Assembly: GCA_000004695.1 (NCBI GenBank)
Contig: CM000150.2
Location: 480,001 to 544,000 of the forward strand
Direction of reading: 5' to 3'
DNA from: Dictyostelium discoideum
Taxonomy: Eukaryota
DNA length: 64,000 nt
Shown here: positions 4,012 to 40,050 of the stretch, piece by piece
Numbering within the stretch: position 1 is the stretch's first letter
Layout: the number at the start of each line of letters is the position of its first letter
Made by a program: the position numbers and the translations under genes
Notes under the pieces: model-generated
Database searches by the model: none
Told to the model about the DNA's origin: nothing
The model's input: only the letters and a program-made list of their open reading frames with translations

Positions 4012-4928
4012 ATGGATAATAATAATAATAATAATAATAATTTAATAAATCAACAAGAAATTTGTTTAGAATTAATTAAAAAAATTAAAAATGATATTAT
4101 AGAAAAATATGAAAATAAAGAAGTTGATAAAGATTATTTAATGGAAATGATGTTTCAATTAAAAGAACAACATTCAAAATTGGAACAATTAATTGAGGAT
4201 CAACATTGGAGACCAATTAAAGAAATCATTGAAAATATTAATCAATCAAATAATAAATTGGAATCATTTAAATATGAGAAAATAATGTTGGAATCTGAAA
4301 TCAATGATTTACGTAAACTTCAATTCGATCTTTCTGATCCATCACTTGGTATAACTCCACTTGAAAAATTCTTATCATTTCAATCACCACAATATATTGA
4401 ATCTTTTAATTCTAAACCAAAAGAAAAACAATCAATTGAAAGATTAGAATGGGAAATTTATCAAAGAAAATTGTAATTTCAAAAATAAAAAAAAAAAAAT
4501 AAAAAAAAAATAAAAAATTTTACTAATATTTTTTATTATTATTATTACTACTATTAGAAAATTAATAGAATTGGAAAAATTAAAAAAATTAAAAATTAAA
4601 CTAAAACAAGATGATGAAAAAGCAAATAATGAATTAAAACAATTTGAAGATAAATTAAAAGAAAATTTAAATGTAAAGAAAGCAGTCGAACCATTTCAAA
4701 AATTTATTGGAATTTTACCAGTTTCAAAAAATAATAATAATAATAATATAATTGGAAATCATCCACTTTTATTAGAATCACCTCAACCTTTATATATTTT
4801 ATATCATGAATTAGTTTACTTTAAAGAATTCTTTTTCAATGAAAATTTAACTGTAGAATTAATAAAAATTGAAAATAGTGATGAAAATAATGAAAGTGTT
4901 GAGAATAATACAATTAGTAATAATAATG

Positions 4929-7553: not shown

Positions 7554-8497
7554 TTAATTACCCCAGAATCTTGGTAAATTATTTCCAGGAATCATTTTAC
7601 GTTCTACACCGTTTTTGTCGATAATACATAATCTAATTACACCACCAGATGAACCATCTCTGAACATAGCAAGAGCCAATGCTATGATTATTTTTTTTAA
7701 AAAAAAAAAAAAAATGTTAGAATGAAAATAAATTAAATAAAGCAATAATAAAAATAATAAAAAAAATTGAATGAATATGGAGGAGGGAACTTACAATTTT
7801 GAACAAATTCAATACATTCATCTTTAGTCATTTTTGGTTTAAATTTGGAATCACAATAACCATAAATATAGGTTGAACCTGAACCACCAATAGCAAATGG
7901 TTGTTTAACCATTGAACCTCCAAGCGAAATATTGTATACACTACCACCTTGATGTTTATCCCAACCAGCTACAATAATACCAGCCATTAAATTGTTTTTA
8001 TTACTATAACATAATAATTGGAAAAGACTTGCTGCGGTTTTTACATCTGGTTCATCACATAATTCTGAACTATATATATATATATACAAATAAATAAATA
8101 ATAAAAAATAAAAAAAAAATAATTGATTAATAAATTTGATTTTTATATTTTTATTAAATATTTAATAAAAACATACGTATGCATTTCAAGATAATATCTA
8201 ACATAATCAGAAATTGCTTGAGTATCAGCAGCTGAACCTGATCTACAACAATAAATTCTTTCATGAATTGGGGTAATTTTGTTTGTAACTCTATTTGCGA
8301 TATATGCACCAGTGGTAGTTCTTGAATCTGCACCCATAATAACACCACCATCATATTCTACTGCCATAATAGAAGTCTAAATAAATAATAAATAATTAAT
8401 ATATAAAATAAAATATAAAATTTAAAAAAAAATAATGAAATTATAAAAAACTTACACCTAAATCAACGGCATTATCTAACCATTCAGGGGCCTCCAT
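7554..8497 (-). CDS. psmB6: Proteasome subunit beta type-6 (beta-1), complement(join(7554..7681,7795..8069,8177..8376,8456..8497)), 214 aa
   Basis: [14 protein letters not shown]|[54 protein letters not shown]...[21 protein letters not shown]...[17 protein letters not shown]... aligns along its length with human PSMB6, including the Thr1 active-site context. All four exon junctions keep frame with GTAAGT/GTATGT donors. Confidence 0.85.
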
Positions 8498-15109: not shown

Positions 15110-18317
<3,208 letters not shown>

Positions 18318-20388: not shown

Positions 20389-20958
20389 ATTATAAAAATA
20401 ATAATAATTATAAAAATAATAATAATAAACTTACTTTTCATTTTTATAAAAAACTTCTTGCAATAAATCAAGTTTTTCAATCAAAACTAATAAACTATTC
20501 AATTTATTGACGTCAGTTATTTTATCAATTGTTTCTCTAATTAAGTTAATAAATCCTTTGATAAAAACTGGGTTGAATCTGTTTTGATTTGAAATCAATA
20601 AATTGATTGCTTCTAATTCCAATCCATTTAAATAGTAGGTTTTAAATTTTTTAAATAATACCAATAGATTTAAATCTTTCTTAAATTCTTCCATTTTTTC
20701 ATTTTCCTTAAAAGATATTAATTTTCCATTAACTTTCACACCATTATCTTTTGTTTTTATATTGGTTTTATGAGTGATTTTAAATTTTTTTTTTTTATAA
20801 ATTATATAATCTTCAAACATATTTAAATCATCTGTTTTAGAACCAATAATTATCTGATCTTCATTAAAAGTTTCCTTTGGAGGAATTATTGACTTTAACT
20901 TGGATTTTAAATTATTTATACTTTTTTTTAATTCAAATTTATTTTTATCTTGATTTTC

Positions 20959-21033
<75 letters not shown>

Positions 21034-21192
21034 TTCATTATTATTATTTTGATTTTCCTTATTATTTTTATTATTATTAATTATATTTTGATTTTCATTA
21101 TTATTAATATTTTGACTATCATTATTATTTATATTTTGATTTTCATTATTATTTATATTTTGATTTTCATTATTATTTATATTTTGATTTTC

Positions 21193-21264
<72 letters not shown>

Positions 21265-21319
21265 ATTATTTTTATTATTAATATTATTTTTATTATTTTT
21301 ATTATTATTATTATTATTG

Positions 21320-21381
<62 letters not shown>

Positions 21382-21561
21382 ATTATTATTATTAATTCCA
21401 ATTATACTTTCATTTTTTTTTTTGTCTGGATCTATTACTAAACATTGGAGTAATATTTTTGATGAGATGAAATTATTTAATAATTCATAATTTTGGAAAT
21501 TTACCAAATTACCAAATTTTTTTTGGAAATTTTGGAAATCTTTTTCAATTTCCTTTTGCAT
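18516..21561 (-). CDS. N-rich ankyrin-repeat protein kinase (TKL-like), merged model complement(join(18516..20264,20435..21561)); a -1 frameshift in an A7 run at 19455..19461 breaks the kinase domain in this assembly
   Basis: ORF 20431..21561 ends ...EVFYKNE-AA|GTAAGT. After a 170-nt AT-rich intron ending AACTAG, the frame continues without a stop (NLKSNILYYSIINPKSLPSISSILGNSNSSMESEW...) into the ankyrin repeats (GNTAIHIALK..., SVPLHLAIKLKDENIIKILLAFGAKP). Kinase subdomains follow: GRGSFGEVY, VCAVKK (only if one extra A is present in the A7 run), HRDLKSKNFLV, DFGTAR. Confidence 0.6.
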
Positions 21562-23466: not shown

Positions 23467-23525
<59 letters not shown>

Positions 23526-23985
23526 GTTTGGGAGTGTTAGTGTGCTATATTTTATTTGTTTTTTCAATTTTTTTTATTTAAAATAAAGTTAATGTTTTTG
23601 ATTTTTTTCAATATTTTTTTTGTCTAAATTTGGGGAAGTGGGTGTTTTTTCAAATAGTTATTGTTTTATGAGTGTTTTTAAGTGGTTGAGTGTGATGTAA
23701 TTTTTAATTTTTGTTATTTTAAAAAAATACAAATTGTTTTTGATAGTGTGTTGGTATGTGTTTTTATTTATTGTGTGTTTTTATTTGTTAAAATAAATAA
23801 AAAAAAAAAATAAAACATAATTTTTAATTTATTTTTTATTTTCATTTGTCAATATTAAAATTTACCAGTATAATAATTTATTATTTTTATCATTCTTGAA
23901 GACAGGAAAAAATAAAAAATTAATTATTTCTTTTATTATTTATTAAAAAAATAAAAAACTAAATCTGATTTTAAATAGTTTTACA

Positions 23986-26744
23986 ATGGAGAAAAAATTA
24001 TTAATAATAGTTATCATCTTTTTATTTTCAATTATCCAAGTATTTTGTAGAATTGATTCTAGTATGTATTAAACAAAAAAAAAAAACCAAAGTTTTAATA
24101 ATTTTTTAAAAAACATATTGTATTAATAATAAAAAACTTTAAATGAAAAATAGAAACATTTGTAATTTCAAATGAAACATTCCTATCATACCATTTTCCA
24201 GTTGGTAGTGAATATTTTTCATCATTAAATTTTGAACTTTTAGTAGGGCCATCATTTCAATTGGATTTTTAATGTATTACTTTCAATAGTACATTTTGTT
24301 TTTCAAAAATTGATCAAGAAAATAAAAAACAATTGTATGGTAAATCCATTACCTACTCAACACAAGAAACCTATGATTTGGATAAAAAAAGGCTACCAAC
24401 TCCAATAGTTTCTTCACCTTTCCAAAAACCAACAAAAGGTGGAACCTCAATTTTAAAAGGTACTTATTTAACATTTTTTGAAAAAAATTATTATGAAGTT
24501 ATCTACCCAGAAAAACAAACAATTGATATTTTGAATTCAAAATCATTATAATTCGATGCAACAAATGTTAAAGTTAATTGTCCACCTGGTTGTGGTTATC
24601 AAATAATTAAATGTGAGAATGGTAAATTATTTAATTTTAGTTATTCAAATCCATCAGTATTTGATTATAAAATAAATTCATCAAATATTATTGTAAATGG
24701 ATCTGATTTTTGTGATAGTTCTTATTCTTCAAATATTACAATTGATGGTGTTATCATTCCAAATTCAAATTATCAAAAAGATGAAGACTCAATTGTAATT
24801 ATTTATACTCAACAACATACAACCAAATCATTAATGAAAATAGAAACAAGCAATGTAACATCTGTTGAAATTGAAATTGTTTTTAAATCAGAACCATTAA
24901 TAATAAATTCAATTCCATATAGTAAAGGTGGTTTAATTATTTTAGAAGGTTTAAGATTATCTTCAAATACAAATAAAAACAATAATAACAATATAATTAT
25001 TAAAATTGGAAATACAACATGTTCAAATGCAATTTCAATATCAAATGAATCAATCACATGTAATTTAAATCCGGGTATAAATAAATCAGTTACTTTAAAT
25101 AATTTACCAGTTTCAGTTACAATTAATAATATTACAAATGAAAATACATTATTATTTAATTATGGTATGGTCAAATTAAATCCAAATAAATATAGTTTAC
25201 CAGATCGTGTTTTACAATTAAATGGTGATTGTCTCGGAAATTCAAATAGTACTATTGTTTATTTAAATGGAAAAGAAACATTATTAAATGATTTAAAAAT
25301 AAATAACCAAGAAACAACTTTATCATTTAAAATACCAGATGAATTTAAATCAAAATTAAATGTTTCAATCAAGGTAAATGATATTTTATCAAATGAAATT
25401 CAAATTGATATTTCATTTTATGCAAGTCATTCAAATGAACAACCAAGTACAAATGGTAAAACAAATATTATATTCACATTATATAATATTAAATCTGAAA
25501 ATTATAATAAAATACCATCAATTATTATAATTCCTGAACAAATTGTAATAAATGGTGTTTCAGTAAATTCACCAACCAATCAAGATGTTCATTCGTATTC
25601 ATTTTTAATTCCAGCTGGGTGTGGTAAAAAAGATATTCAAATTATAATTGGTAGTCAATCATGTTTGTCATCAATTACATACTTTGAACCAATTATTAAA
25701 AATTGTTTAGTATCAGGTTTTGATGGTACAAATGGAAATATAATTTGTGATGGTAGTTTTGGTAATAAAGATTATTTAATTAAATCATCTGTACTATTTT
25801 CAAATGATGAAATTGTACCACCATCAATCAATAGTACAACATTTTCGTTCCCTCTAATATCAGGTTATCACAGTGATGATTTAATTTTTCAAATGTGCGG
25901 TGTTCAAAGTAAACCATTTAAATTAAACATCTCACCATCATTAAAAGGAATCAATCACAGTCAAATGGAAACATTAGGTGGTAAATTTTACATTCTTGGT
26001 GAATTCTTTAGTGCAAATATAAATTGTAGTGTATTTTGCAATGATAAAGAATATGAAAAACATTTTGAAAACTCAAAGACGATTTCATTCGATTTACAAA
26101 TTCCAGGTCCAAATGATATTACATGTAATTATACATTTGATAATGGAAAAAATACTGGTGATTTTAAGATTGAATATCCTTTACCATTAATAGAAAATAC
26201 GAGCTCAATAAATGTAAATGGTGGAAATTTAACAATTTATGGTAAAAACTTTTATAATATTTCAAATATCAAAGTTGAAGTTGATAATCAATTAAAATGT
26301 AATAATATTGAATTTATTAATTTAAATAGTTTAACCTGTTTCTTACCACCATTTAATGAAACAAGAAAACAACCATTATTTAATGATCAAAAACTATTAT
26401 TAAATTCATCAACAACTATTTTTAGCAAAAAATTATTATTAAATGTTACATTTGAAAGTAAAACATGGAGTGGATATATTTTTCAATATTCAAAAGAAGA
26501 AATAAAAAATAATGGTACAAGTGAAAATTCAACCAATGATATTTTAAATCATGAAAAAAATAATAATAATCAGAAAGATGGAAGTAGTTTAAGTAAAAAA
26601 AGTATAATATTATTATCAATATTATTACCTGGTTTTATTATTTTAATAGTTTCTTTAACAATTGTTATTCTTGTAATTAAAAAAAATAAAACAAAACATA
26701 GTAAAAATATGTCACCAAAAGAGAAAGAATTAATGAAACAATAA
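23986..26744 (+). pseudogene. tgr-like IPT/TIG membrane glycoprotein, array copy 1, pseudogene: in-frame TAA at 24270..24272 and 24549..24551, plus a Trp-to-Cys change
   Basis: Same exon structure as copies 2-4 (exon 1 23986..24061, exon 2 from 24154). LDFECIT is replaced by LDF*CIT (gaa to taa) and SLSFDAT by SL*FDAT (tca to taa). IKWENG is replaced by IKCENG. The distal 636 codons (24834..26744) remain open. Confidence 0.75.
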
Positions 26745-27059: not shown

Positions 27060-27137
27060 AAGTTTGTATTTTTTTTTGAAAATCCAATTTTAACTTTAAA
27101 ATACAATTTAATGTTTTTGATAGTGTGTTTTTTATTT

Positions 27138-27171
<34 letters not shown>

Positions 27172-27660
27172 AATGTGTGTTAGTGTACTATGTTTTATTA
27201 GTTATGTGAGTTTGTTGTGTTTTTTCAATTTATTCTATTTAAAATAAAGATAATGTTTTCGATAGTGTGTTATTTTTCAATATTTGTCTAAGTTTGGAGA
27301 AGTGGGTGTTTTTTTCAAATAATTATTGTTTTATGAGTGTTTTTAAGTGGTTAAGTGTGATGAAATTTTTTATTTTTTGTTATTTTAAAAAAATACAAAG
27401 TGTTTTTGATAGTGTGTTAGTGTGTGTTTTTATTTAATTTATTTTTATTCAATTTTTTTAATTATTTTTTAATATTGTATAAATAAATAATAAAAAAAAA
27501 TAAAACATTATAATTTTTAATTTATTTTTTATTTTCATTTGTCAATATTAAAATTTACCAGTATAATAATTTATTATTTTTATCATTCACCAACAAATAA
27601 TAAAAAAAATTAATTATTTGTTTTAAAATATTAAAAAATTAAATCTGATTTTAAATAATT
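27060..27660 (+). promoter_or_regulatory. Conserved 5' module of the tandem units, present at about 23460..23985, 27060..27665, 30740..31340 and 34600..35176, containing repeated GT-rich boxes (putative G-box/GBF-type developmental elements)
   Basis: Blocks such as ggagaagtgggtgttttttt, gtttttgatagtgtgttagtgtgtgttttt and gtggttaagtgtgatg recur in the same order before each copy, embedded in otherwise A/T-only DNA. The TTTTGATAGTGTG motif occurs about three times per unit. Confidence 0.35.
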
Positions 27661-27665
27661 TTACA

Positions 27666-30414
27666 ATGGAGAAAAAATTACTAATAATAGTTATCGTCTT
27701 TTTATTTTCAACTATCCAAGTATTTTGTAGAATTGATGATAGTATGTATAAAACAAAAAAACAAAACTTTATCATTTTTCAAAAAACATATTGTATTAAT
27801 AAATGAAAACTTTAAATGAAAAATAGAAACATTTGTAATTTCAAATGAAACATACCTATCATACCATTTTCCTGTTGATAGTGAATACTTTTCATCATTA
27901 AATTTTGAACATTATGAAGGACCATCATTTCAATTGGATTTTGAATGTATTACTTTCAATGGCACAATTTGTTTTTCACAAATTTATCCAGAAATTAAAA
28001 AAAAAATTTATGGTACGTCAATTTCATATTCAACACAAAAAACATACAAATTAGATCAAGAATTGTTTCCAACTCCAATAGTTTCCTCACCTTTCCAACC
28101 TCCAACAAAAGGTGGAATCTCAATTTTAAAAGGTACTTTTTTAACATTTTCGGAAAAAACCTTTTATCAAGTTATCTACCCAAAAAAGCAAAAGATTTTT
28201 ATTTTAGATTCAGAATCGTTATCGTTCGATGCAACAAATTTTAAAGTTAATTGTCCACCTGGTTGTGGTTATCAAATAATTAAATGGGATAATGGTAATT
28301 TATTTAATTTTAGTTATTCAAATCCATCAATATCGGTTGTTAAAATAAATCCATCAAATATTATTGTAAATGGATCTGATTTTTGTGATAGTTCTTATTC
28401 TTCAAATATTACAATTGATGGAGTTATCATTCCAAATTCAAATTATGAAAAAGATGAAGACTCAATTGTAATTATTTATACTCAACAACACACAATCAAA
28501 TCATTAATGAAAATTGAAACAAGCAATGTAACATCTGTTGAAATTGAAATTGTTTTTAAACCAGAACCTTTATTAATAAACTCGGTTCCATATAGTAAAG
28601 GTGGTTTATTAATTTTAGAAGGTTTAAGATTATCTTCAAATACAACAAATAAAAATAATAACAATAATAATATAATTATTAAAATTGGAAATATTACATG
28701 TTCAAACGCAATTTCAATCTCAAATGATTCAATCACATGTAATTTAAATCCGGGTTTTAATAATAAATCAGTTACTTTAAATAATTTACCAGTTTCAGTT
28801 ACAATTAACAATATTACAAATGAAAATAAATTATTATTTAATTATGGCATCGTTAAATTAAATCCAAATAAATATAGTTTACCAGATCGTGTTTTACAAT
28901 TAAATGGTGATTGTCTCGGAAATTCAAATGGTACTATAGTTTATTTAAATGGAAAAGAAACATTATTAAATGATTTAAAAATAAATAACCAAGAAACAAC
29001 TTTATCATTTAAAATACCAGATGAATTTAAATCAAAATTAAATGTTTCAATCAAGGTAAATGATATTTTATCAAATGAAATTCAAATTGATATTTCATTT
29101 TATGCAAGTCATTCAAATGAACAACCAAGTACAAATGGTAATACAAATATTATATTCACATTATATAATATTAAATCTGAAAATTATAATAAAATACCAT
29201 CAATTATTATAATTCCTGAACAAATTGTAATAAATGGTGTTTCAGTAAATTCACCAACCAATCAAGATGTTCATTCGTATTCATTTTTAATTCCAGCTGG
29301 GTGTGGTAAAAAAGATATTCAAATTATAATTGGTAGTCAATCATGTTTGTCATCAATTACATACTTTGAACCAATTATTAAAAATTGTTTAGTATCAGGT
29401 TTTGATGGTACAAATGGAAATATAATTTGTGATGGTAGTTTTGGTAATAAAGATTATTTAATTAAATCATCTGTACTATTTTCAAATGATGAAATTATAC
29501 CACCATCAATCAATAGTACAACATTTTCGTTCCCGCTTATATCAGGTTATCACAGTGATGATTTAATTTTTCAAATGTGTGGTGTTCAAAGTAAACCATT
29601 TAAATTAAACATCTCACCATCATTAAAAGGAATCAATCAAAGTCAAATGGAAACATTAGGTGGTAAATTTTACATTCTTGGTGAATTCTTTAGTGCAAAT
29701 ATAAATTGTAGTGTATTTTGCAATGATAAAGAATATGAAAAAAAATTTGAAAACTCAAAGACGATTTCATTCGATTTACAAATTCCAGGTCCAAATGATA
29801 TTACATGTAATTATACATTTGATAATGGAAAAAATACTGGTGATTTTAAGATTGAATATCCTTTACCATTAATAGAAAATACGAGTTCAATAAATGTAAA
29901 TGGTGGAAATTTAACAATTTATGGTAAAAACTTTTATAATGTTTCAAATATCAAAGTTGAAGTTGATAATCAATTAAAATGTAATAAAATTGAATTTATT
30001 AATTTAAATAGTTTAACCTGTTTCTTACCACCATTTATTGAAACATTATTTAATGATCAAAAACTATTATTAAATTCATCAACAACTATTTTTAGTAAAA
30101 AATTATTATTAAATGTTACATTTGAAAGTAAAACATGGAGTGGATATATTTTTCAATATTCAAAAGAAGAAATAAAAAATAATGATACAAGTGAAAATTC
30201 AACCAATGATATTTTAAATCATGAAAAAAATAATAATAATCAGAAAGATGGAAGTAGTTTAAGTAAAAAAAGTATAATATTATTATCAATATTATTACCT
30301 AGTTTTATTATTTTAATAGTTTCTTTGGCAATTGTTATTCTTGTAATTAAAAGAAATAAAACAAAACATAGTAAAAATATGTCATCAAAAGAGAAAGAAT
30401 TAATGAAACAATAA
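27666..30414 (+). CDS. tgr-like IPT/TIG type-I membrane glycoprotein, array copy 2, join(27666..27741,27827..30414)
   Basis: Signal peptide MEKKLLIIVIVFLFSTIQVFC in exon 1 (GTATGT...ATAG intron, phase 1). At least three IPT/TIG-like modules (e.g. PYSKGGLLILEGLRLSS...IIIKIGNITCSNAISISNDSITCNLNPG; YPLPLIENTSSINVNGGNLTIYGKNFYNVSNIKVEVDNQLKC...LTCFLPPF). More than 50 N-x-S/T sequons. C-terminal TM SIILLSILLPSFIILIVSLAIVILVI with a short basic tail. Lacks 4 aa (FIETLFNDQ) relative to copies 1, 3 and 4 (FNETRKQPLFNDQ). Confidence 0.8.
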
Positions 30415-30807
30415 TAGTAGCAATAAAAATAATTTAATAATTATTAAATTATTAATTTATTATTTACATTTAATAATTAATATTATTTGTAATAGGGAAA
30501 TGGGCATCTTCAAATATTTTTTATTTCTCTGATCATAAATTTGGACCTGACCGATTTTTTTCCAAATTTCAATTTCACATTCTCCCAACTCAACAAAAAG
30601 ATATTACTTAAAAAACTATAAAATTATATCAAATAACAATTTTTAAAAAATAGTGATAATAAAAAAAAAAAAGAAACATTCAATAATAATAATAATTGAA
30701 AAGATGTTTTTAAATTGTTGATTGTTTAGAAGTTTGTATTTTTTTTTGAAAATCCAATTTTAACTTTAAAATACAATTTAATGTTTTTGATAGTGTGTTT
30801 TTTATTT

Positions 30808-30840
<33 letters not shown>

Positions 30841-31340
30841 AATGTGTGTTAGTGTACTATGTTTTATTAGTTATGTGAGTTTGTTGTGTTTTTTCAATTT
30901 ATTCTATTTAAAATAAAGATAATGTTTTCGATAGTGTGTTATTTTTCAATATATTTTTGTTGTCTAAGTTTGGAGAAGTGGGTGTTTTTTTCAAATAATT
31001 ATTGTTTTATGAGTGTTTTTAAGTGGTTAAGTGTGATGAAATTTTTTATTTTTTGTTATTTTAAAAAAATACAAAGTGTTTTTGATTGTGTGTTAGTGTG
31101 TGTTTTTATTTAATTTATTTTTATTCAATTTTTTTAATTATTTTTTAATTTTGTATAAATAAATAATAAAAAAAATAAAACATAATAATTTTTAATTTAT
31201 TTTTTATTTTCATTTGTCAATATTAAAATTTACCAGTATAATAATTTATTATTTTTATCATTCACCAACAAATAATAAAAAAAATTAATTATTTGTTTTA
31301 AAATATTAAAAAATTAAATCTGATTTTAAATAATTTTACA

Positions 31341-34098
31341 ATGGAGAAAAAATTACTAATAATAGTTATCGTCTTTTTATTTTCAACTATCCAAGTATTT
31401 TGTAGAATTGATGATAGTATGTATAAAACAAAAAAACAAAACTTTATCATTTTTCAAAAAACATATTTTATTAATAAATGAAAACTTTAAATGAAAAATA
31501 GAAACATTTGTAATTTCAAATGAAACATACCTATCATACCATTTTCCTGTTGGTAGTGAATACTTTTCATCATTAAATTTTGAACATTATGAAGGACCAT
31601 CATTTCAATTGGATTTTGAATGTATTACTGGCAATGGTACAGTTTGTTTTTCACAAATTTATCCAGAAATTAAAAAAAAATTTTATGGTACGTCAATTTC
31701 ATATTCAACACAAAAAACATACAAATTAGATCATGAATTGTTTCCCACTCCAATAGTTTCCTCACCTTTCCGACCACCAACAAAAGGTGGAATCTCAATT
31801 TTAAAAGGTACTTATTTAACATTTTCTGAAAGACTTTCCTATTATGAAGTTATCTACCCAAAAAAACAAAAGATTGTGATTTCAGATTCAGAATCATTAT
31901 CATTCGATGCAACAAACGTTAAAGTTAATTGTCCACCTGGTTGTGGTTATCAAATAATTAAATGGGAGAATGGCCAATTATTTAATTTTAGTTATTCAAA
32001 TCCATCAGTATTTGATTATAAAATAAATCCATCAAATATTATTGTAAATGGATCTGATTTTTGTGATAGTTCTTATTCTTCAAATATTACAATTGATGGT
32101 GTTATCATTCTAAATTCAAACTACCAAAAAGATGAAGACTCAATTGTAATTATTTATACTCAACAACACACGACCAAATCATTAATGAAAATTGAAACTA
32201 GCAATGTAACTTCTGTTGAAATTGAAATTGTTTTTAAACCAGAACCATTAATTATAAATTCAATTCCATATATTAAAGGTGGTTTAATTATTTTAGAAGG
32301 TTCAAGATTATCTTCAAATACAAATAAAAACAATAATAATAATATAATTATTAAAATTGGAAATATTACATGTTCAAACGCAATTTCAATCTCAAATGAA
32401 TCAATCACATGTAATTTAAATCCGGGTATATATAATAAATCAGTTCCCTTAAATAATTTACCAGTTTCAGTTACAATTAACAATATTACAAATGAAAATA
32501 CATTATTATTTAATTATGGTATGGTCAAATTAAATCCAAATAAATATAGTTTACCAGATCGTGTTTTACAATTAAATGGTGATTGTCTTGGAAATTCAAA
32601 TAGTACCATAGTTTATTTAAATGGAAAAGAAACATTATTAAATGATTTAAAAATAAATAACCAAGAAACAACTTTATCATTTAAAATACCAGATGAATTT
32701 AAATCAAAATTAAATGTTTCAATCAAGGTAAATGATATTTTATCAAATGAAATTCAAATTGATATTTCATTTTATGCAAGTTATTCTAATGAACAACCAA
32801 GTACAAATGGTAATACAAATATAATATTCACATTATATAATATTAAATCTGAAAATTATAATAAAATACCATCAATTATTATAATTCCTGAACAAATTGT
32901 AATAAATGGTGTTTCAGTAAATTCACCAACCAATCAAGATGTTCATTCGTATTCATTTTTAATTCCAGCTGGGTGTGGTAAAAAAGATATTCAAATTATA
33001 ATTGGTAGTCAATCATGTTTGTCATCAATTACATACTTTGAACCAATTATTAAAAATTGTTTAGTATCAGGTTTTGATGGTACAAATGGAAATATAATTT
33101 GTGATGGTAGTTTTGGTAATAAAGATTATTTAATTAAATCATCTGTACTTTTTTCAAATGATGAAATTGTACCACCATCAATCAATAGTACAACATTTTC
33201 GTTCCCACTAATATCAGGTTATCACAGTGATGATTTAATTTTTCAAATGTGCGGTGTTCAAAGTAAACCATTTAAATTAAACATCGCACCATCTTTGAAA
33301 AGAATCGATCAAAGTCAAATGGAAACATTGGGTGGTAAATTTTACATTCTTGGCGAATTCTTTGGTGTAAATATAAATTGTAGTGTATTTTGCAATGATA
33401 AAGAATATGAAAAAAAATTTGAAAACTCAAAGACGATTTCATTCGATTTACAAATTCCAGGTCCAAATGATATTACATGTAATTATACATTTGATAATGG
33501 AAAAAATACTGGTGATTTTAAGATTGAATATCCTTTACCATTAATAGAAAATACGAGTTCAATAAATGTAAATGGTGGAAATTTAACAATTTATGGTAAA
33601 AACTTTTATAATGTTTCAAATATCAAAGTTGAAGTTGATAATCAACTAAAATGTAATAATTTTGAATTTATTAATTTAAATAGTTTAACCTGTTTCTTAC
33701 CACCATTTAATGAAACAAGAAAACAATCATTATTTAATGATCAAAAACTATTATTAAATTCATCAACAACTATTTTTAGCAAAAAATTATTATTAAATGT
33801 TACATTTGAAAGTAAAACATGGAGTGGATATATTTTTCAATATTCAAAAGAAGAAATAAAAAATAATGATACAAGTGAAAATTCAACCAATGATATTTTA
33901 AATCATGAAAAAAATAATAATAATAATCAGAAAGATGGAAGTAGTTTAAGTAAAAAAAGTATAATATTATCAATATTATTACCTGGTTTTATTATTTTAG
34001 TAGTTTCTTTAACAATTGTTATTATTGTAATTAAAAGAAATAAAACAAAACATAGTAAAAATATGTCATCAAAAGAGAAAGAATTAATGAAACAATAA
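31341..34098 (+). CDS. tgr-like IPT/TIG type-I membrane glycoprotein, array copy 3, join(31341..31416,31502..34098)
   Basis: Same architecture as copy 2. Intact ORF with scattered substitutions clustered in the N-terminal domain. One-residue shorter TM (SIILSILLPG...). Confidence 0.8.
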
Positions 34099-35176
34099 TA
34101 GTAGCAATAAAAATAATTTAATAATTATTAAATTATTAAATTATTATTTATATTTAATAATTAATATTATTTGTAATAGGGAAATGGATGTATCTTCAAA
34201 ATATTTTTTATTTCTCTGATCATAAATTTGAACCTGACCGATTTTTTTCCAAATTTCAATTTCACATTCTCCCAACTCAACAAAAAGATATTACTTAAAA
34301 AACGATAAAATTATATCAAATAACAATTTTTAAAAAATAGTAATAAAAAAAAAAAAATTAAAAAGAAACATTCAATAATAATAAAAATTAAAAAAAATGT
34401 TTTTAAATTGTTGATTGTTTAGAAGTTTGTATTTTTTTTTGAAAATCCAATTTTAACTTTGGAGAAGTGGGTGTGTTTTTAATTTTTTTTTTTTGTAAAT
34501 CTAATTATAACTTAGGAGAAGTGGGTGTTTTTTTTTTTTTTTTTTTTTATGAAAGTGTGTTAATGTGTGATGTTTTGATTTGTTAAATGATTTTTTCTCT
34601 TTTAATTCAATTTGTTTTTTTTTAAAATACAATTTAATGTTTTTGATAGTGTGCATTTTTTATTTGTTTTTTTTTTTTTTTTTTTTGGAATGTGTGTTAG
34701 TGTACTATGTTTTATAAGTTATGTGAGTTTGTTGTGTTTTTTCAATTTATTTTATTTAAAATAAAGATAATGTTTTCGATAGTGTGTTATTTTTCAATAT
34801 ATTTTTGTTATCTGAGTTTGAAGAAGTGGGTGTTTTTTCAAATAATTATTGTTTTATGAGTGTTTTTAAGTGGTTAAGTGTGATGAAATTTTTTATTTTT
34901 GTTATTTTAAAAAAAAATACAAAGTTTTTTTGATAGTGTGTTAGTGTGTGTTTATTTAATGTATTTTTATTCAATTTTTTTAATTATTTTTTAATTATAT
35001 TTGAATAAATAATAAAAAAAATAAAACATTAAAATATTTAATTTTTTTTTTTTTTTCATTTGTCAATATTAAAATTTACCAGTATAATTTATTATTTTTA
35101 CCATTCACCAATAAAAAAAAAAATTATTATTTATTTTAAAAATAAAAAACTAAATCTGATTTTAAATAGTTTTACA

Positions 35177-38100
35177 ATGGAGAAAAAATTATTAATAATA
35201 GTTATCATCTTTTTATTTTCAACTATCCAAGTATTTTGTCAAATTGATTATAGTATGTATAAAACAAAAAAACAAACTTTTAATAATTTTTTAAAATATA
35301 TTGTATTAATAATTGAAAACTTTAAATTAAAAATAGAAACATTTGTAATTTCAAATGAAACATACCTATCATACCATTTTCCAGTTGGTAGTGAATATTT
35401 TTCATCATTAAATTTTGAACGTTTCGTAGGTCCATCATTTCAACTGGATTTTGAATGTATTACTTTCAATGGTACAGTTTGTTTTTCTCAAATTAATCAA
35501 GAAAATAAAAAACAATTGTATGGTACATCCATTACCTATACAACAAAAGTAACTATTAGTTTGTATAAGAATAACCTTCCAACTCCAATAGTTTCTTCAC
35601 CTTTCCAACCTCCAACAAAAGGTGGAATCTCAATTTTAAAAGGTACCTATTTAACATTTTCTGAAAGACTTTCCTATTATGAAGTTATCTACCCAAAAAA
35701 ACAAAAGATTGTGATTTCAGATTCAGAATCATTATCATTCGATGCAACAAACGTTAAAGTTAATTGTCCACCTGGTTGTGGTTATCAAATAATTAAATGG
35801 GAGAATGGCCAATTATTTAATTTTAGTTATTCAAATCCATCAGTATTTGATTATAAAATAAATCCATCAAATATTATTGTAAATGGATCTGATTTTTGTG
35901 ATAGTTCTTATTCTTCAAATATTACAATTGATGGTGTTATCATTCCAAATTCAAACTACCAAAAAGATGAAGACTCAATTGTAATTATTTATATTCAACA
36001 ACACACAACCAAATCATTATTGAAAATAGAAACAAGCAATGTAACATCTGTTGAAATTGAAATTGTTTTTAAACCAGAACCATTAATTATAAATTCAATT
36101 CCATATAGTAAAGGTGGTTTAATTATTTTAGATGGTTCAAGATTATCTTCAAATACAAATAAAAACAATAATAATATAATTATTAAAATTGGAAATATTA
36201 CATGTTCAAACGCAATTTCAATCTCAAATGAATCAATCACATGTAATTTAAATCCGGGTATATATAATAAATCAGTTGCCTTAAATAATTTACCAGTTTC
36301 AGTTACAATTAATAATATTACAAATGGAAATACATTATTATTTAATTATGGTATGGTCAAATTAAATCCAAATAAATATAGTTTACCAGATCGTATTTTA
36401 CAATTAAATGGTGATTGTCTCGGAAATTCAAATAGTACTATTGTTTATTTAAATGGAAAAGAAACATTATTAAATGATTTAAAAATAAATAACCAAGAAA
36501 CAACTTTATCATTTAAAATACCAGATGAATTTAAATCAAAATTAAATGTTTCAATCAAGGTAAATGATATTTTATCAAATGAAATTCAAATTGATATTTC
36601 ATTTTATGCAAGTCATTCTAATGAACAACCAAGTACAAATGGTAATACAAATATTATATTCACATTATATAATATTAAATCTGAAAATTATAATAAAATA
36701 CCATCGATTATAATTATTCCTGAACAAATTGTTATTAATGGTGTTTCAGTAAATTCACCAACCAACCAAGATGTTCATTTGTATTCATTTTTAATTCCAG
36801 CTGGGTGTGGTAAAAAAGATATTCAAATTATAATTGGTAGTCAATCATGTTTGTCATCAATTACATACTTTGAACCAATTATTAAAAATTGTTTAGTATC
36901 AGGTTTTGATGGTACAAATGGAAATATAATTTGTGATGGTAGTTTTGGTAATAAAGATTATTTAATTAAATCATCTGTACTTTTTTCAAATGATGAAATT
37001 GTACCACCATCAATCAATAGTACAACATTTTCGTTCCCTCTAATATCAGGTTATCACAGTGATGATTTAATTTTTCAAATGTGCGGTGTTCAAAGTAAAC
37101 CATTTAAATTAAACATCTCACCATCATTAAAAAGAATCAATCAAAGTCAAATGGAAACATTGGGTGGTAAATTTTACATTCTTGGTGAATTCTTTAGTGC
37201 AAATATAAATTGTAGTGTATTTTGCAATGATAAAGAATATGAAAAACATTTTGAAAACTCAAAGACGATTTCATTCGATTTACAAATTCCAGGTCCAAAT
37301 GATATTACATGTAATTATACATTTGATAATGGAAAAAATACTGGTGATTTTAAGATTGAATATCCTTTACCATTAATAGAAAATACGAGTTCAATAAATG
37401 TGAATGGTGGAAATTTAACAATTTATGGTAAAAACTTTTATAATGTTTCAAATATCAAAGTTGAAGTTGATAATCAATTAAAATGTAATAATATTGAATT
37501 TATTAATTTAAACAGTTTAACCTGTTTCTTACCACCATTTAATGAAACAAGAGAGCAATCATTATTTAATGATCAAAAACTATTATTAAATTCATCAACA
37601 ACTATTTTTAGCAAAAAATTATTATTAAATGTTACATTTGAAAGTAAAACATGGAGTGGATATATTTTTCAATATTCAAAAGAAGAAATAAAAAATAATG
37701 GTACAAGTGAAAATTCAAGTAATGATATAATAGATCATGAAAAAAACAATAATACTACAAAAAATGGTAAAGGCGGTATCAATTTAAGTAAAGAAAGTAA
37801 AATAATAATTTCTGTAGTCTTACCTGGTGTTATTATTTTAATAATTTTATCGGTAGTAGTAATCTATCGTATTAGAATAAATAGAATTACACGAAATACA
37901 TATGTGAAAAAAATTAATGAAATGAAAACAATAACACCAGAAGAGAAACGAGATGAAATAGATGAATCAGATGAAATTAAAAAAAAACTTGATATTGAAA
38001 TGTCAGAATTAAGATCCAATCTATTCATACACTCAATCAGTTATACTAACACACTCAAAGAACAACAAATGGAAAGGGATCAAATCAATAAAAGTCCAAG

Positions 38101-38377
38101 TCTACAAATTCAACCACAAAATAATCAATTGAATATAATTAATAATGGTGAAGGTTCAAGTCAACAAATTCAACCACAAAGTAATCAATCAAATATTATT
38201 AATAATGATGAGGGTTCAAGCCACCAATTTCAACCTGAAATTAATCAATCCAATACAATTAATAATAGTGAAGGTTCAAGTCAACAAATTCAACCACAAA
38301 ATAATCAATTGAATATAATTAATAATGATGTGGGTTCAAGTCACCAATCTAAGCAAAATGATAGTACTGGTTGCTGA
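35177..38377 (+). CDS. tgr-like IPT/TIG type-I membrane glycoprotein, array copy 4, join(35177..35252,35337..38377), with a divergent TM and a roughly 200-aa cytoplasmic tail carrying three EGSSQQIQPQNNQLNIINN-type repeats
   Basis: Ectodomain is collinear with copies 2 and 3 up to ...YSKEEIKNNGTSENS. It then diverges (KNGKGGINLSKESKIIISVVLPGVIILIILSVVVIY...) into a long tail with an acidic stretch and three 19-aa repeats. The 3' flank is also unrelated to those of units 1-3. Confidence 0.75.
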   Translation: MEKKLLIIVIIFLFSTIQVFCQIDYSMYKTKKQTFNNFLKYIVLIIENFKLKIETFVISNETYLSYHFPVGSEYFSSLNFERFVGPSFQLDFECITFNGTVCFSQINQENKKQLYGTSITYTTKVTISLYKNNLPTPIVSSPFQPPTKGGISILKGTYLTFSERLSYYEVIYPKKQKIVISDSESLSFDATNVKVNCPPGCGYQIIKWENGQLFNFSYSNPSVFDYKINPSNIIVNGSDFCDSSYSSNITIDGVIIPNSNYQKDEDSIVIIYIQQHTTKSLLKIETSNVTSVEIEIVFKPEPLIINSIPYSKGGLIILDGSRLSSNTNKNNNNIIIKIGNITCSNAISISNESITCNLNPGIYNKSVALNNLPVSVTINNITNGNTLLFNYGMVKLNPNKYSLPDRILQLNGDCLGNSNSTIVYLNGKETLLNDLKINNQETTLSFKIPDEFKSKLNVSIKVNDILSNEIQIDISFYASHSNEQPSTNGNTNIIFTLYNIKSENYNKIPSIIIIPEQIVINGVSVNSPTNQDVHLYSFLIPAGCGKKDIQIIIGSQSCLSSITYFEPIIKNCLVSGFDGTNGNIICDGSFGNKDYLIKSSVLFSNDEIVPPSINSTTFSFPLISGYHSDDLIFQMCGVQSKPFKLNISPSLKRINQSQMETLGGKFYILGEFFSANINCSVFCNDKEYEKHFENSKTISFDLQIPGPNDITCNYTFDNGKNTGDFKIEYPLPLIENTSSINVNGGNLTIYGKNFYNVSNIKVEVDNQLKCNNIEFINLNSLTCFLPPFNETREQSLFNDQKLLLNSSTTIFSKKLLLNVTFESKTWSGYIFQYSKEEIKNNGTSENSSNDIIDHEKNNNTTKNGKGGINLSKESKIIISVVLPGVIILIILSVVVIYRIRINRITRNTYVKKINEMKTITPEEKRDEIDESDEIKKKLDIEMSELRSNLFIHSISYTNTLKEQQMERDQINKSPSLQIQPQNNQLNIINNGEGSSQQIQPQSNQSNIINNDEGSSHQFQPEINQSNTINNSEGSSQQIQPQNNQLNIINNDVGSSHQSKQNDSTGC

Positions 38378-38709
38378 TAAATAATTAAAATAATAAAAAA
38401 AAAATAAAAAAATAAAAAAATAAAAAAATAGTAATAATATAATCCTTTTTTAAAATAATAAATTATAAACAATATTAATTTTTAATTTTTAAAATTATTA
38501 TTTTAGTATTTTCTTTTTACACCTTCAAAGCATAGGTACTTTTTAAAATTGAGATTTTTTTGTTTTTTTGTGTTGGAAAGGAGCAAAATTTGAAAAGATC
38601 TTTCTAAAAATAGAATTAATTTGAATGACAAAGTTTTTTTTTTTTTTTTTTTAAGATTTTTTTTTTTTTTTTTTTTTTATCATTTTTTTTTTTATTTTTA
38701 AAATCAAAA

Positions 38710-40050
38710 ATGAAAAACAGCTCATCAATGTTAAAAGGAGTTAAATCATTTATTGGTAGTGGAATTTATACAAACAAACCAATATATGATGTAGCAATTG
38801 TTGGTGGGGGTATAGTTGGATTAGCAACAGGTAGAGAATTATTAAAGAGGAATCCAAAATTAAAAATTGTAATACTTGAAAAGGAGAATGAAATTGCACC
38901 ACATCAATCATCACATAATAGTGGTGTAATTCATTGTGGAATTTATTATAAACCAGGATCATTAAGAGCTAAACTTTGTACAAAAGGTTCAAAGTTAATG
39001 TATGACTATTGTAATGAAAATCAAATAAACTATGAAAATTGTGGTAAATTAATTGTTGCAACTAAAAAAGAAGAATTTCAACAATTAGAACAACTCTATA
39101 AAAGAGGTATTGAAAATGGTGTACCAAATATAAAACTATTAGAATCAAAAGAACAACTATTATCAATTGAACCATTTATAAATGGTGGTTTACGTGCAAT
39201 TCATACACCATCAACTGGAATCATTGATTATAAAGAAGTCTCAAAATCATTTGGTAATGATATTACTGAAAAGTTTGGAAAAGATTCAAAATCTGAAATT
39301 AAATTAAATTTTAATGCAAAAAATTTTAAATATAATTCAAATGATAAATTATTATTAATTTCAACTGGTGATGATGATGATGATGAAGAACAACAACAAT
39401 CAATTTTAACCAAATATTCAATTGTATGTGGTGGCATGAATAGTGATAGAATTGCAAAAGTTGCATATGGTAATGATGAACCATCGATTGTACCATTTCG
39501 AGGTAGTTTTTTACAATTTAAACCAGAATTTAGACATTTGATTAAAGGTAATGTTTATCCATTACCAAATGCTTCATTCCCATTTTTAGGTGTTCATTTC
39601 ACAAAGAGGATTAATGGTGAAGTTTGGTTAGGTCCAAATGCGGTATTATCATTCGACAGAGAGGGATACAAATTCACAGATTTCAATCTACACGATACTA
39701 TTGATTTAATTAAAAATCCTGGTTTATTTAAATTGGCCAAAAAACATTGGAAATATGGCTTAGGTGAATTGTATAGAGATTTTAATAAAGATCATTTCAT
39801 TCAACTTTTAAAACCATATATGCCAAATATCACCGTGGACATGTTAGAATATGGAGGTAGTGGTGTTAGAAGTCAAGCAATTTCGAAATCTGGTGATTTA
39901 ATTGAAGATTTCATTTTTGATACACCATCAGATGTTCCAATAATACATGTAAGAAATTCACCTTCTCCTGCTGCAACCTCTTCACTTGCAATTGCAATTG
40001 AAATTGTAGATTTAGCTCAAAATAATTTTAAAAATTTAAATTCTTTATAA
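38710..40050 (+). CDS. l2hgdh: L-2-hydroxyglutarate dehydrogenase, mitochondrial (FAD-dependent), single exon, 446 aa
   Basis: DVAIVGGGIVGLATGREL...HQSSHNSGVIHCGIYYKPGSLRAKLC...CGKLIVA...VPFRGSFLQFKP...FPFLGVHFT...WLGPNAVL...GVRSQA...HVRNSPSPAATSSLAIA is collinear with human L2HGDH, including the FAD-binding GxGxxG. Confidence 0.85.
   Translation: MKNSSSMLKGVKSFIGSGIYTNKPIYDVAIVGGGIVGLATGRELLKRNPKLKIVILEKENEIAPHQSSHNSGVIHCGIYYKPGSLRAKLCTKGSKLMYDYCNENQINYENCGKLIVATKKEEFQQLEQLYKRGIENGVPNIKLLESKEQLLSIEPFINGGLRAIHTPSTGIIDYKEVSKSFGNDITEKFGKDSKSEIKLNFNAKNFKYNSNDKLLLISTGDDDDDEEQQQSILTKYSIVCGGMNSDRIAKVAYGNDEPSIVPFRGSFLQFKPEFRHLIKGNVYPLPNASFPFLGVHFTKRINGEVWLGPNAVLSFDREGYKFTDFNLHDTIDLIKNPGLFKLAKKHWKYGLGELYRDFNKDHFIQLLKPYMPNITVDMLEYGGSGVRSQAISKSGDLIEDFIFDTPSDVPIIHVRNSPSPAATSSLAIAIEIVDLAQNNFKNLNSL

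Follow-up and report, generated by a model that had tools for sequence, protein, structure and literature searches.

A four-copy Tgr array on chromosome 1

The stretch of DNA analysed here, i.e., the window, comprises 64 kb of chromosome 1 of Dictyostelium discoideum AX4 (assembly GCA_000004695.1, contig CM000150.2, positions 480,001 to 544,000). It has approximately 20% G+C and carries a tandem array of four related genes, copies 1 to 4, of which the last is the subject of this work. The source record is 4,923,596 bp long, and copies 3 and 4 as well as the open reading frame (ORF) at 38710-40050 match AX4 proteins exactly. The array takes the form n x S + 1 x L, where S denotes genes with a short cytoplasmic tail and L the single long-tailed gene, copy 4, which adjoins the gene for L-2-hydroxyglutarate dehydrogenase (L2HGDH).

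Array units were delimited with blastn, using positions 34001-39000 as query against the window, which gave four head-to-tail units on the + strand. The spans homologous to copy 4 are 23494-26652 for copy 1, 27095-30361 for copy 2 and 30765-34006 for copy 3, and the copy 4 unit itself spans 34621-37886. All four copies have in common an exon 1 with a signal-peptide-like start (MEKKLLIIVI...), a GTATGT...ATAG intron of 84-92 nt and one long second exon. Copy 1 (23986..26744, intron 24062-24153) is a short-tailed pseudogene with in-frame TAA codons at 24270 and 24549, its frame being otherwise intact up to the normal stop. Copy 2 (27666..30414, intron 27742-27826) and copy 3 (31341..34098, intron 31417-31501) are short-tailed genes with intact spliced ORFs of 887 and 890 amino acids respectively, and the copy 3 product is identical to XP_647197.1/Q55GI7.

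Copy 4 (35177..38377, + strand) is of the long-tail type, with an ATG at 35177, an intron at 35253-35336 and a stop codon ending at 38377, giving a spliced ORF of 1038 amino acids. Its product is exactly XP_647198.2/EAL73605.2/Q55GI6 and is also on record under a second accession, KAM9943783.1; accessions KAM9943782/3/4 run consecutively for copy 3, copy 4 and L2HGDH. Since the 84-nt intron is in frame and free of stop codons, the unspliced ORF reads as 1066 amino acids from the ATG. An older 1066-amino-acid protein model (UPI00004E2A6A), which would include the intron, is on record. Copy 4 is thus an already annotated gene, present in the reference annotation for years, of a family known to be dynamic.

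The protein matches Pfam PF24612 (Ig_TgrO1) in three stretches (E=5.4e-44, 148.7 bits against a cut-off of 27.9) and has no other Pfam match; NCBI names it 'immunoglobulin E-set domain-containing protein'. By inspection, its N-terminus (MEKKLLIIVIIFLFSTIQVFC) resembles a signal peptide. A search of 1.84 billion representatives returned 60 matches at E<=1e-3, and all the sources looked up were Dictyostelium species. On these sequence features copy 4 can be assigned to the Tgr ('Tiger') family of type I membrane proteins, and within it probably to the rapidly duplicating tgrAHIO group (PMC3188802; PMC12745789). The functions of the TgrA/H/I/O proteins are unknown; these subfamilies are large and dynamic, duplicate and rearrange rapidly, and their arrays are gained and lost by recombination (PMC12745789).

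The N-terminal part of the ectodomain contains a hypervariable segment (35354..35753, + strand), in which copies and strains differ by 12-37 mismatches per 200 nt. Here, and at the equivalent positions in copies 1-3, at least three haplotypes occur without regard to tail type, while the ectodomain outside this segment is 93-100% identical. A similar polymorphism at the N-terminus has been reported for tgrB1 and tgrC1.

The array is surrounded by an NCA2 gene, genes for an IRE1-like kinase/RNase and an Ank-kinase, a DAO/L2HGDH gene and a NUDIX gene, the array itself being situated between the IRE1-like kinase / Ank-kinase gene and DDB_G0267656. The latter (38710..40050, + strand) encodes L2HGDH and served as synteny anchor; a unique AT-rich intergenic region (38378..38709) separates it from the end of the array.

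The 3' end of copy 4 and the break in identity

Copy 4 shares with copies 1-3 a tract of 5' flank, exon 1, intron and ectodomain (34621..37718, + strand), with an overall identity of 91-94% and of 94-100% from ~35750 to 37718. In a sliding comparison with copies 1-3, identity is 94-100% over ~35750-37736, falls to ~71% over 37737-37836 and ~57% over 37837-37925, and then reaches background. Differences private to copy 4 number four in 37400-37718 and affect ~29% of positions from 37719 on.

An earlier, sequence-only reading of this stretch had reported that homology ends abruptly after the motif NNGTSENS (codons 37694-37717). A sharp break is indeed present and can be located at 37718/37719, but homology continues beyond it. 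Positions 37721-37847, i.e., the stalk and the first half of the transmembrane (TM) segment, align with copy 3 at 74% over 127 nt (E=2e-20), with a global alignment z of 10.5 relative to dinucleotide shuffles, and at the protein level the motif LSK..S.II....LPG(F/V)IIL is shared. The TM segment, which the same reading took to be replaced (as quoted, 37808-37867), does differ from that of the other copies; however, it is a diverged homologue in which LPG(F/V)IIL is kept and not an unrelated swap. Nor does a replacement of a 3' exon and flank agree with the gene structure, because the only intron of copy 4 lies at its 5' end (35253-35336), leaving no 3' exon available for a swap, and because stalk and TM are homologous past the break. 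The 3' flank was rightly described as unrelated: 38378-38709 is unlike the spacers between copies since copy 4 is the last unit before L2HGDH. What stands of the original proposal is that one member has a distinct intracellular tail, of ~169 amino acids in copy 4 compared with ~21 in the S copies; its origin as a replacement does not stand.

Beyond ~37850 no similarity to copies 1-3 or to the spacers was detectable, and no second copy of the tail was found in the window, the sole other copy found being a rearranged fragment in another assembly (L001, below). A tblastn search with the tail, run without composition correction, gave no match in the spacers after copies 1-3, so that no tail-coding remnant was detectable there. 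The only matches it returned were of Q/N low complexity and fell in neighbouring genes, e.g., 20944-21435 (- strand) and 16413-17039 (+ strand). Just before the S stop codon there is a collinear match of 15 nt, out of frame relative to copy 4; though too short for proof, it hints that S might have been derived by a frameshift. At 37718/37719, in the most plausible reading, lies the 3' edge of a tract homogenised by recombination, and not a recent replacement or an assembly joint.

The 3' end itself, all on the + strand, begins with a juxtamembrane stalk (37718..37801) that is diverged from but homologous to that of copies 1-3. It is followed by the TM helix IIISVVLPGVIILIILSVVVIY (37802..37867), a hydrophobic stretch of 22 residues with K and R at its flanks, and by a basic stop-transfer segment RIRINRITRNTYVKKINEMK (37868..37927), which together with the tail would lie on the cytoplasmic side according to the positive-inside rule. 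Next come the acidic block (37928-38011), which the earlier reading had correctly placed after the TM and before a Q/N-rich tandem repeat, and a linker (38012-38086); the two (TITPEEKRDEIDESDEIKKKLDIEMSEL RSNLFIHSISYTNTLKEQQMERDQI; 37928..38086) hold the orthologue-shared motifs T/SPEEK and IEMSxLRxNLxxHSISYT, the latter within the discoideum clade. The repeat then leads into the C-terminal DVGSSHQSKQNDSTGC and the stop codon (38327..38377, stop at 38375-38377).

A single-sequence AlphaFold2 model of 37778-38374 has a helix at residues 5-50 over the TM and basic segment, with a predicted local distance difference test (pLDDT) score of 80-94, and a second helix at residues 54-105, with block means up to 98, over the acidic block and linker. 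These last two are accordingly predicted as one long cytoplasmic helix of ~50 residues, acidic at its start. The repeats score below 50, consistent with a disordered region. Neither tail, searched on its own against Pfam, had a match above threshold, and the matches below it are ascribed to chance. Of 2000 dinucleotide shuffles of the 169-codon tail, not one was free of stop codons (mean 12.6 stops), and the other two frames contain 10 and 34 stops; the reading frame of the tail has therefore been maintained.

The repeat is a coding minisatellite of four 60-nt (20-amino-acid) Q/N-rich units plus a partial fifth (38087..38347), predicted to be disordered. Tandem Repeats Finder (TRF) places it at 38097-38347 and gives a period of 60, 4.2 copies, 82% matches, 0% indels and a score of 355. 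A tandem Q/N-rich repeat had been recognised before, and it exists far beyond chance, but where three repeats of 19 residues from ~38130 had been counted, TRF and in-frame reading give four full units of 20 residues and a partial fifth. The full units are NKSPSLQIQPQNNQLNIINN (38087-38146), GEGSSQQIQPQSNQSNIINN (38147-38206), DEGSSHQFQPEINQSNTINN (38207-38266) and SEGSSQQIQPQNNQLNIINN (38267-38326), which are pairwise identical at 45-55 of 60 nt; the partial fifth, DVGSSHQ, extends to ~38347 within DVGSSHQSKQNDSTGC. Glutamine and asparagine account for 39 of the 96 residues of the repeat region, a composition which, with the low pLDDT, brought a prion-like domain into consideration.

Orthologous loci in other strains and species

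Orthologous loci were reached in four assemblies using relatives of L2HGDH as anchors. These assemblies (L004-L007) are probably among the Nanopore and Illumina genomes of PMC12745789. In D. discoideum GCA_054859385.1 (L004) a single long-tailed Tgr gene (1137-amino-acid model, 9.2 repeat units) lies upstream of L2HGDH, and in D. discoideum GCA_054859355.1 (L006) a short-tailed gene (885 amino acids) and a long-tailed gene (1117 amino acids, 8.2 units) do so. Two D. cf. discoideum assemblies each have one long-tailed gene upstream of L2HGDH, accompanied by inverted fragments in L005 (7.9 units) and with a broken 5' part in L007 (8.4 units). The gene proximal to L2HGDH is thus long-tailed in 4/4 other assemblies, and the long tail does not look like a new acquisition of AX4 copy 4. 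The number of S copies upstream of the long-tailed gene ranges from 0 to 3 when AX4 is included. The ORF runs continuously from ectodomain through TM to tail in the orthologues of other Dictyostelium assemblies.

Two lines of evidence from these loci bear on how the array evolves. Firstly, the 3' modules separate by type and not by strain: AX4 copy 4 differs from the L gene of L006 at 15 positions of 197 nt and AX4 copy 3 from the S gene of L006 at 10 of 161, compared with 50-53 mismatches per 164 in cross-type comparisons. By this measure the S-type and L-type 3' modules are stable lineages within D. discoideum. Secondly, in L004 the alignment to AX4 up to 23492 joins directly to the alignment from 34523, with an overlap of ~30 bp, and therefore the 11 kb with copies 1-3 are absent. 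At its 5' end (L004 6117-6714) the remaining gene has 0-3 mismatches per 200 nt to the S gene of L006 and 24-35 to its L gene, while at its 3' end (L004 8712-9058) it has 1-6 mismatches to L and 48-55 to S. The L004 gene is thus a chimera, short-type in its 5' part and long-type in its 3' part, as expected of the deletion product of an unequal crossover between S and L.

The tail minisatellite also differs between strains. With 4.2 units by TRF in AX4, those given above for the four other loci and 6.5 in the L001 fragment, the comparison indicates that the repeat grows and shrinks by whole 60-nt units.

Several rearranged fragments accompany these loci. A word-indexed protein search with the C-terminal 325 amino acids had P0001 as its sole match; close relatives, including AX4's own, were not returned. 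P0001 is the annotated 371-amino-acid protein of a mosaic fragment (L001 9748-11290) on the D. cf. discoideum contig of L005, ~30 kb away and inverted, in which 162 bp of the IRE1-like gene (window 17390-17553) are followed by 885 bp of tgr ectodomain (window 36478-37362), with 6.5 tail-repeat units and a stop codon joined straight on to it. It looks like a rearranged pseudogene. In L005 itself, short inverted fragments of tgr ectodomain lie at 4031-4720 (- strand), upstream of the single long-tailed gene.

Beyond D. discoideum, a search of the representative library found the proteins of two arrays in D. firmibasis, L002 with the order S-L and L003 with the order S-S-L. The terminal gene of either array has a tail of ~190 amino acids, and the upstream genes have tails of ~15-20. 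The D. firmibasis long tails are collinear with that of copy 4 in the motifs T/SPEEK, NLxxHxxxxxN and NDEGSS(H/S)xF(Q/S)P; the NDEGSS motif matches copy 4 with a BLASTP E value of 0.007 and is followed by a second, degenerate (E/Q)GSSxQxQxQ unit, which suggests that the 20-amino-acid unit is older than its expansion in the D. discoideum lineage. The expanded tail repeat of D. firmibasis is a different one, with 11.5 copies of a 15-nt EKESL unit. The S tails of the two species have no specific similarity. D. discoideum and D. firmibasis diverged 50-100 million years ago (PMC12745789). Judging by sequence and position, the long tail looks like a conserved state of the terminal gene, because it occupies the same position in four assemblies and ends both D. 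firmibasis arrays.

The two species also resemble each other in how identity is distributed. Within a species, S and L are 97-99% identical over the final 1.5 kb of the ectodomain coding sequence, compared with 77-78% between species, and in both species S and L are 71-72% identical over stalk and TM. Everything 5' of the TM thus appears to be under concerted evolution.

Further observations concern the D. firmibasis loci themselves. L002 and L003 (CM069766.1, ~4.29-4.32 and 4.40-4.43 Mb) are ~92% identical over 8 kb, stand in opposite orientation ~100 kb apart and constitute an inverted segmental duplication. One of the arrays flanks the orthologues of the window genes at 18.5-21.6 kb on their opposite side. 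At the D. discoideum array position, downstream of the orthologue of window ORF 20431-21561, only a remnant is found (L002 22533-22750), in which the final ectodomain codons (KTWSGYIFQFSKDEI) and a stalk with a frameshift are accompanied by 'NYTENEDPTTNVDK', resembling the end of the long tail; it suggests that an L-type gene formerly stood there in D. firmibasis. Short-tailed D. firmibasis genes (e.g., L003 ~8000-8300) have a long AAT (poly-Asn) run directly after their stop codons, which probably explains the inflated 924-amino-acid model of the middle copy.

Origin of the array and comparison with known systems

We consider it likely that copy 4 is the terminal long-tailed member of an n x S + L Tgr array and that the break within it marks the edge of the homogenised tract. 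Under this model the S and L 3' modules would be old, diverged homologues (~72% nucleotide identity), while unequal crossover and gene conversion would keep the promoter region, intron and ectodomain upstream of 37718 at 94-100% identity, recombination being the homogenising force that these patterns suggest. The L module, lying 3' of the shared tract and against a unique flank, would be structurally protected. An unequal crossover between S and L could then yield only a single S/L chimera (contraction) or an extra S upstream of one L (expansion); the reciprocal product of a deletion of the L004 type would be S-S-L. Such crossovers, with L in terminal position, would be the reason why extra copies are always short-tailed and why there is exactly one L, always last. 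No description of this layout with a terminal L, or of the polymorphic 20-amino-acid tail repeat, was found in searchable papers.

Selection was gauged with a simple Nei-Gojobori estimate of the ratio of nonsynonymous to synonymous substitution (dN/dS). For the ectodomain the ratio is 0.24-0.36, both for AX4 copy 4 against other strains and between AX4 copies, which indicates purifying selection in both gene types. Over the 80 cytoplasmic codons next to the membrane it is 1.0-2.6 between strains. These figures point to a tail that is kept open with a few motif islands but is weakly constrained, with an overall rate that is about neutral. Our best guess is a flexible, fast-evolving intracellular extension on a helical stalk, unlike a conserved catalytic or docking domain; the distinct signalling tail envisaged by the sequence-only reading is possible but not supported.

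Several points weigh against this account. It invokes gene conversion and unequal crossover, which are deduced from how identity is distributed and from a single chimeric allele. Across species, stalk and TM do not group according to tail type (L-L 0.61-0.62, S-L 0.59-0.60, S-S 0.55-0.57), and the S module need not have had a single ancient origin. The orthology of the D. discoideum and D. firmibasis long tails is based on short motifs and position (one pairwise E=0.007), and synteny is partial, the D. firmibasis arrays not being beside L2HGDH. In addition, the proximal-tail dN/dS of at least 1 is based on few synonymous sites (S ~45) in an AT-biased genome, and most tgr genes are weakly expressed (bioRxiv 10.1101/2025.10.22.684067).

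Among the alternatives, the one that survives best is that the short tails are derived, S genes having arisen from an L-type gene cut by a frameshift or nonsense mutation and subsequent decay, possibly independently in two species. The two tail types would in that case be a result of extra copies degenerating and not of two modules being maintained. The pseudogene state of copy 1, an S number that is variable and can be zero, the out-of-frame 15-nt match before the S stop codon and the dissimilarity of S tails between species all fit this idea. We nevertheless hold it to be somewhat unlikely, as copies 2 and 3 and the S gene of L006 are intact (885-890 codons) with an ectodomain dN/dS of ~0.3, and AX4 and L006 have well-conserved S-type TM and tail sequences (10 mismatches/161 nt). 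The idea bears solely on how S arose and can stand beside the explanation of copy 4 preferred here.

A conserved signalling domain in the long tail, with copy 4 a receptor like TgrB1 and the short-tailed copies ligands or decoys, is a less probable alternative, drawn largely from analogy. In its favour, the L module is older than the split of D. discoideum from D. firmibasis, its ORF has been strictly kept and the tail has conserved motif islands and a confidently predicted helix; there is also the precedent of TgrB1 as receptor and TgrC1 as ligand (PMC11088635). However, a proximal-tail dN/dS of 1.0-2.6 against ~0.3 in the ectodomain contrasts with the nearly invariable intracellular domain of TgrB1, no Pfam domain is found in the tail, the number of repeats differs up to twofold, D. 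firmibasis carries the different EKESL repeat instead and expression is weak for most tgr genes. More doubtful again is a maintained paired-receptor system in which a shared ectodomain would be presented as a short-tailed ligand or decoy and as a long-tailed form with a helical stalk and a disordered Q/N tail of variable length. Were it true, geometry would fix one L copy while S dose and tail-repeat length varied between strains, tuning cell-cell recognition or adhesion signalling.

That copy 4 is a former short-tailed copy whose TM, tail and flank were recently swapped from an unrelated or distant gene is very unlikely. The sharp identity break at 37718/37719 and the lack of detectable similarity past ~37850 to copies 1-3 or spacers would suit such an event, but stalk and TM are homologous across the break, there is no 3' intron, the same long tail occupies the same position in four other assemblies and ends both D. 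firmibasis arrays, and no second tail copy exists in the window, only the rearranged L001 fragment having been found. An assembly artefact (a collapsed or misjoined array) or a tail belonging to a separate downstream gene is scarcely credible: although Sanger-era references are easily misassembled where ~95% identical tandem units of 3.7 kb occur, the ORF crosses the junction without interruption and with homology on both sides, the exact 1038-amino-acid protein is annotated under two accessions, the second in the consecutive set KAM9943782/3/4, and the same continuous ectodomain-TM-tail ORF is found in orthologues of other Dictyostelium assemblies.

Interpreted as the end of a homogenised tract, the locus is a small, clean example of unequal crossover that homogenises ectodomains and changes copy number while a terminal 3' module is protected, and one strain has preserved a chimeric contraction allele. 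In genome scans it is worth bearing in mind that a sharp drop in identity at the end of the last tandem unit is usually the edge of a repeat unit or conversion tract, and alone is no sign of a new fusion. The S/L architecture, the chimeric allele and the tail minisatellite are tidy, minor additions which leave knowledge of the family unchanged. No other self/non-self recognition molecules of a facultatively multicellular organism are as well studied as the Tgr proteins, and how the diversity of the family arises and is kept up is an active question.

The array compares most directly with the Tgr family as a whole, from which it has no essential difference, copy 4 being a member. It shares the repeated Ig-like/IPT E-set ectodomain (Ig_TgrO1), the single TM and the variable cytoplasmic tail, and also the clustered duplicates and pseudogenes and the recombination-driven gain and loss of copies between strains and species. 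The signal peptide of the family may be a further common feature, given the look of the N-terminus.

Two broader likenesses may be drawn. In vertebrate paired receptors (KIR, LILR, SIRP, Ly49 type), linked paralogues combine near-identical ectodomains, homogenised by recombination, with alternative TM/tail modules of different length. The array has a similar layout, in that S and L are 97-98% identical over the last 1.5 kb of the ectodomain and 71-72% over stalk and TM, with tails of ~21 and ~169 amino acids; it differs in having no sequence relationship to these receptors and no evidence for opposing signalling. An immunoreceptor tyrosine-based inhibitory motif in the long tail was rejected on inspection, as there is no [SIVL]xYxx[ILV] and the two tyrosines lie in NTYVKKI and ISYTNT. 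The analogy of a charged TM was likewise rejected, as inspection of the S TM IILSILLPGFIILVVSLTIVIIVI found no charged residue. Coding minisatellites are known from other cell-surface genes, e.g., the repeats of yeast FLO/ALS adhesins. The copy 4 repeat is similarly an in-frame tandem repeat, made of 60-nt units whose number changes by whole units from strain to strain (4.2 to 9.2), but lies in the predicted cytoplasmic tail and not in the ectodomain. Its Q/N-richness is shared with many low-complexity regions of Dictyostelium.

A further comparison is with the allorecognition pair TgrB1 and TgrC1, encoded at the tgrBC locus, which is marked by wacA and chdB (PMC12745789). Heterophilic binding between the two controls development and sorting. 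TgrB1 is the receptor for TgrC1, and the intracellular domain of TgrB1 is described as nearly invariable (PMC11088635). As in that system, the array consists of linked genes of the same protein family with possibly different cytoplasmic output, and the N-terminal ectodomain is the most variable part. However, the ectodomains of tgrB1 and tgrC1 are distinct, whereas those of the array are 94-100% alike over most of their length. The array lies on chromosome 1 as same-strand, head-to-tail units and is not a paired B/C-type tgrBC locus, and in contrast to the nearly invariable intracellular domain of TgrB1, the tail of copy 4 is fast-evolving, with 4.2 to 9.2 repeat units.

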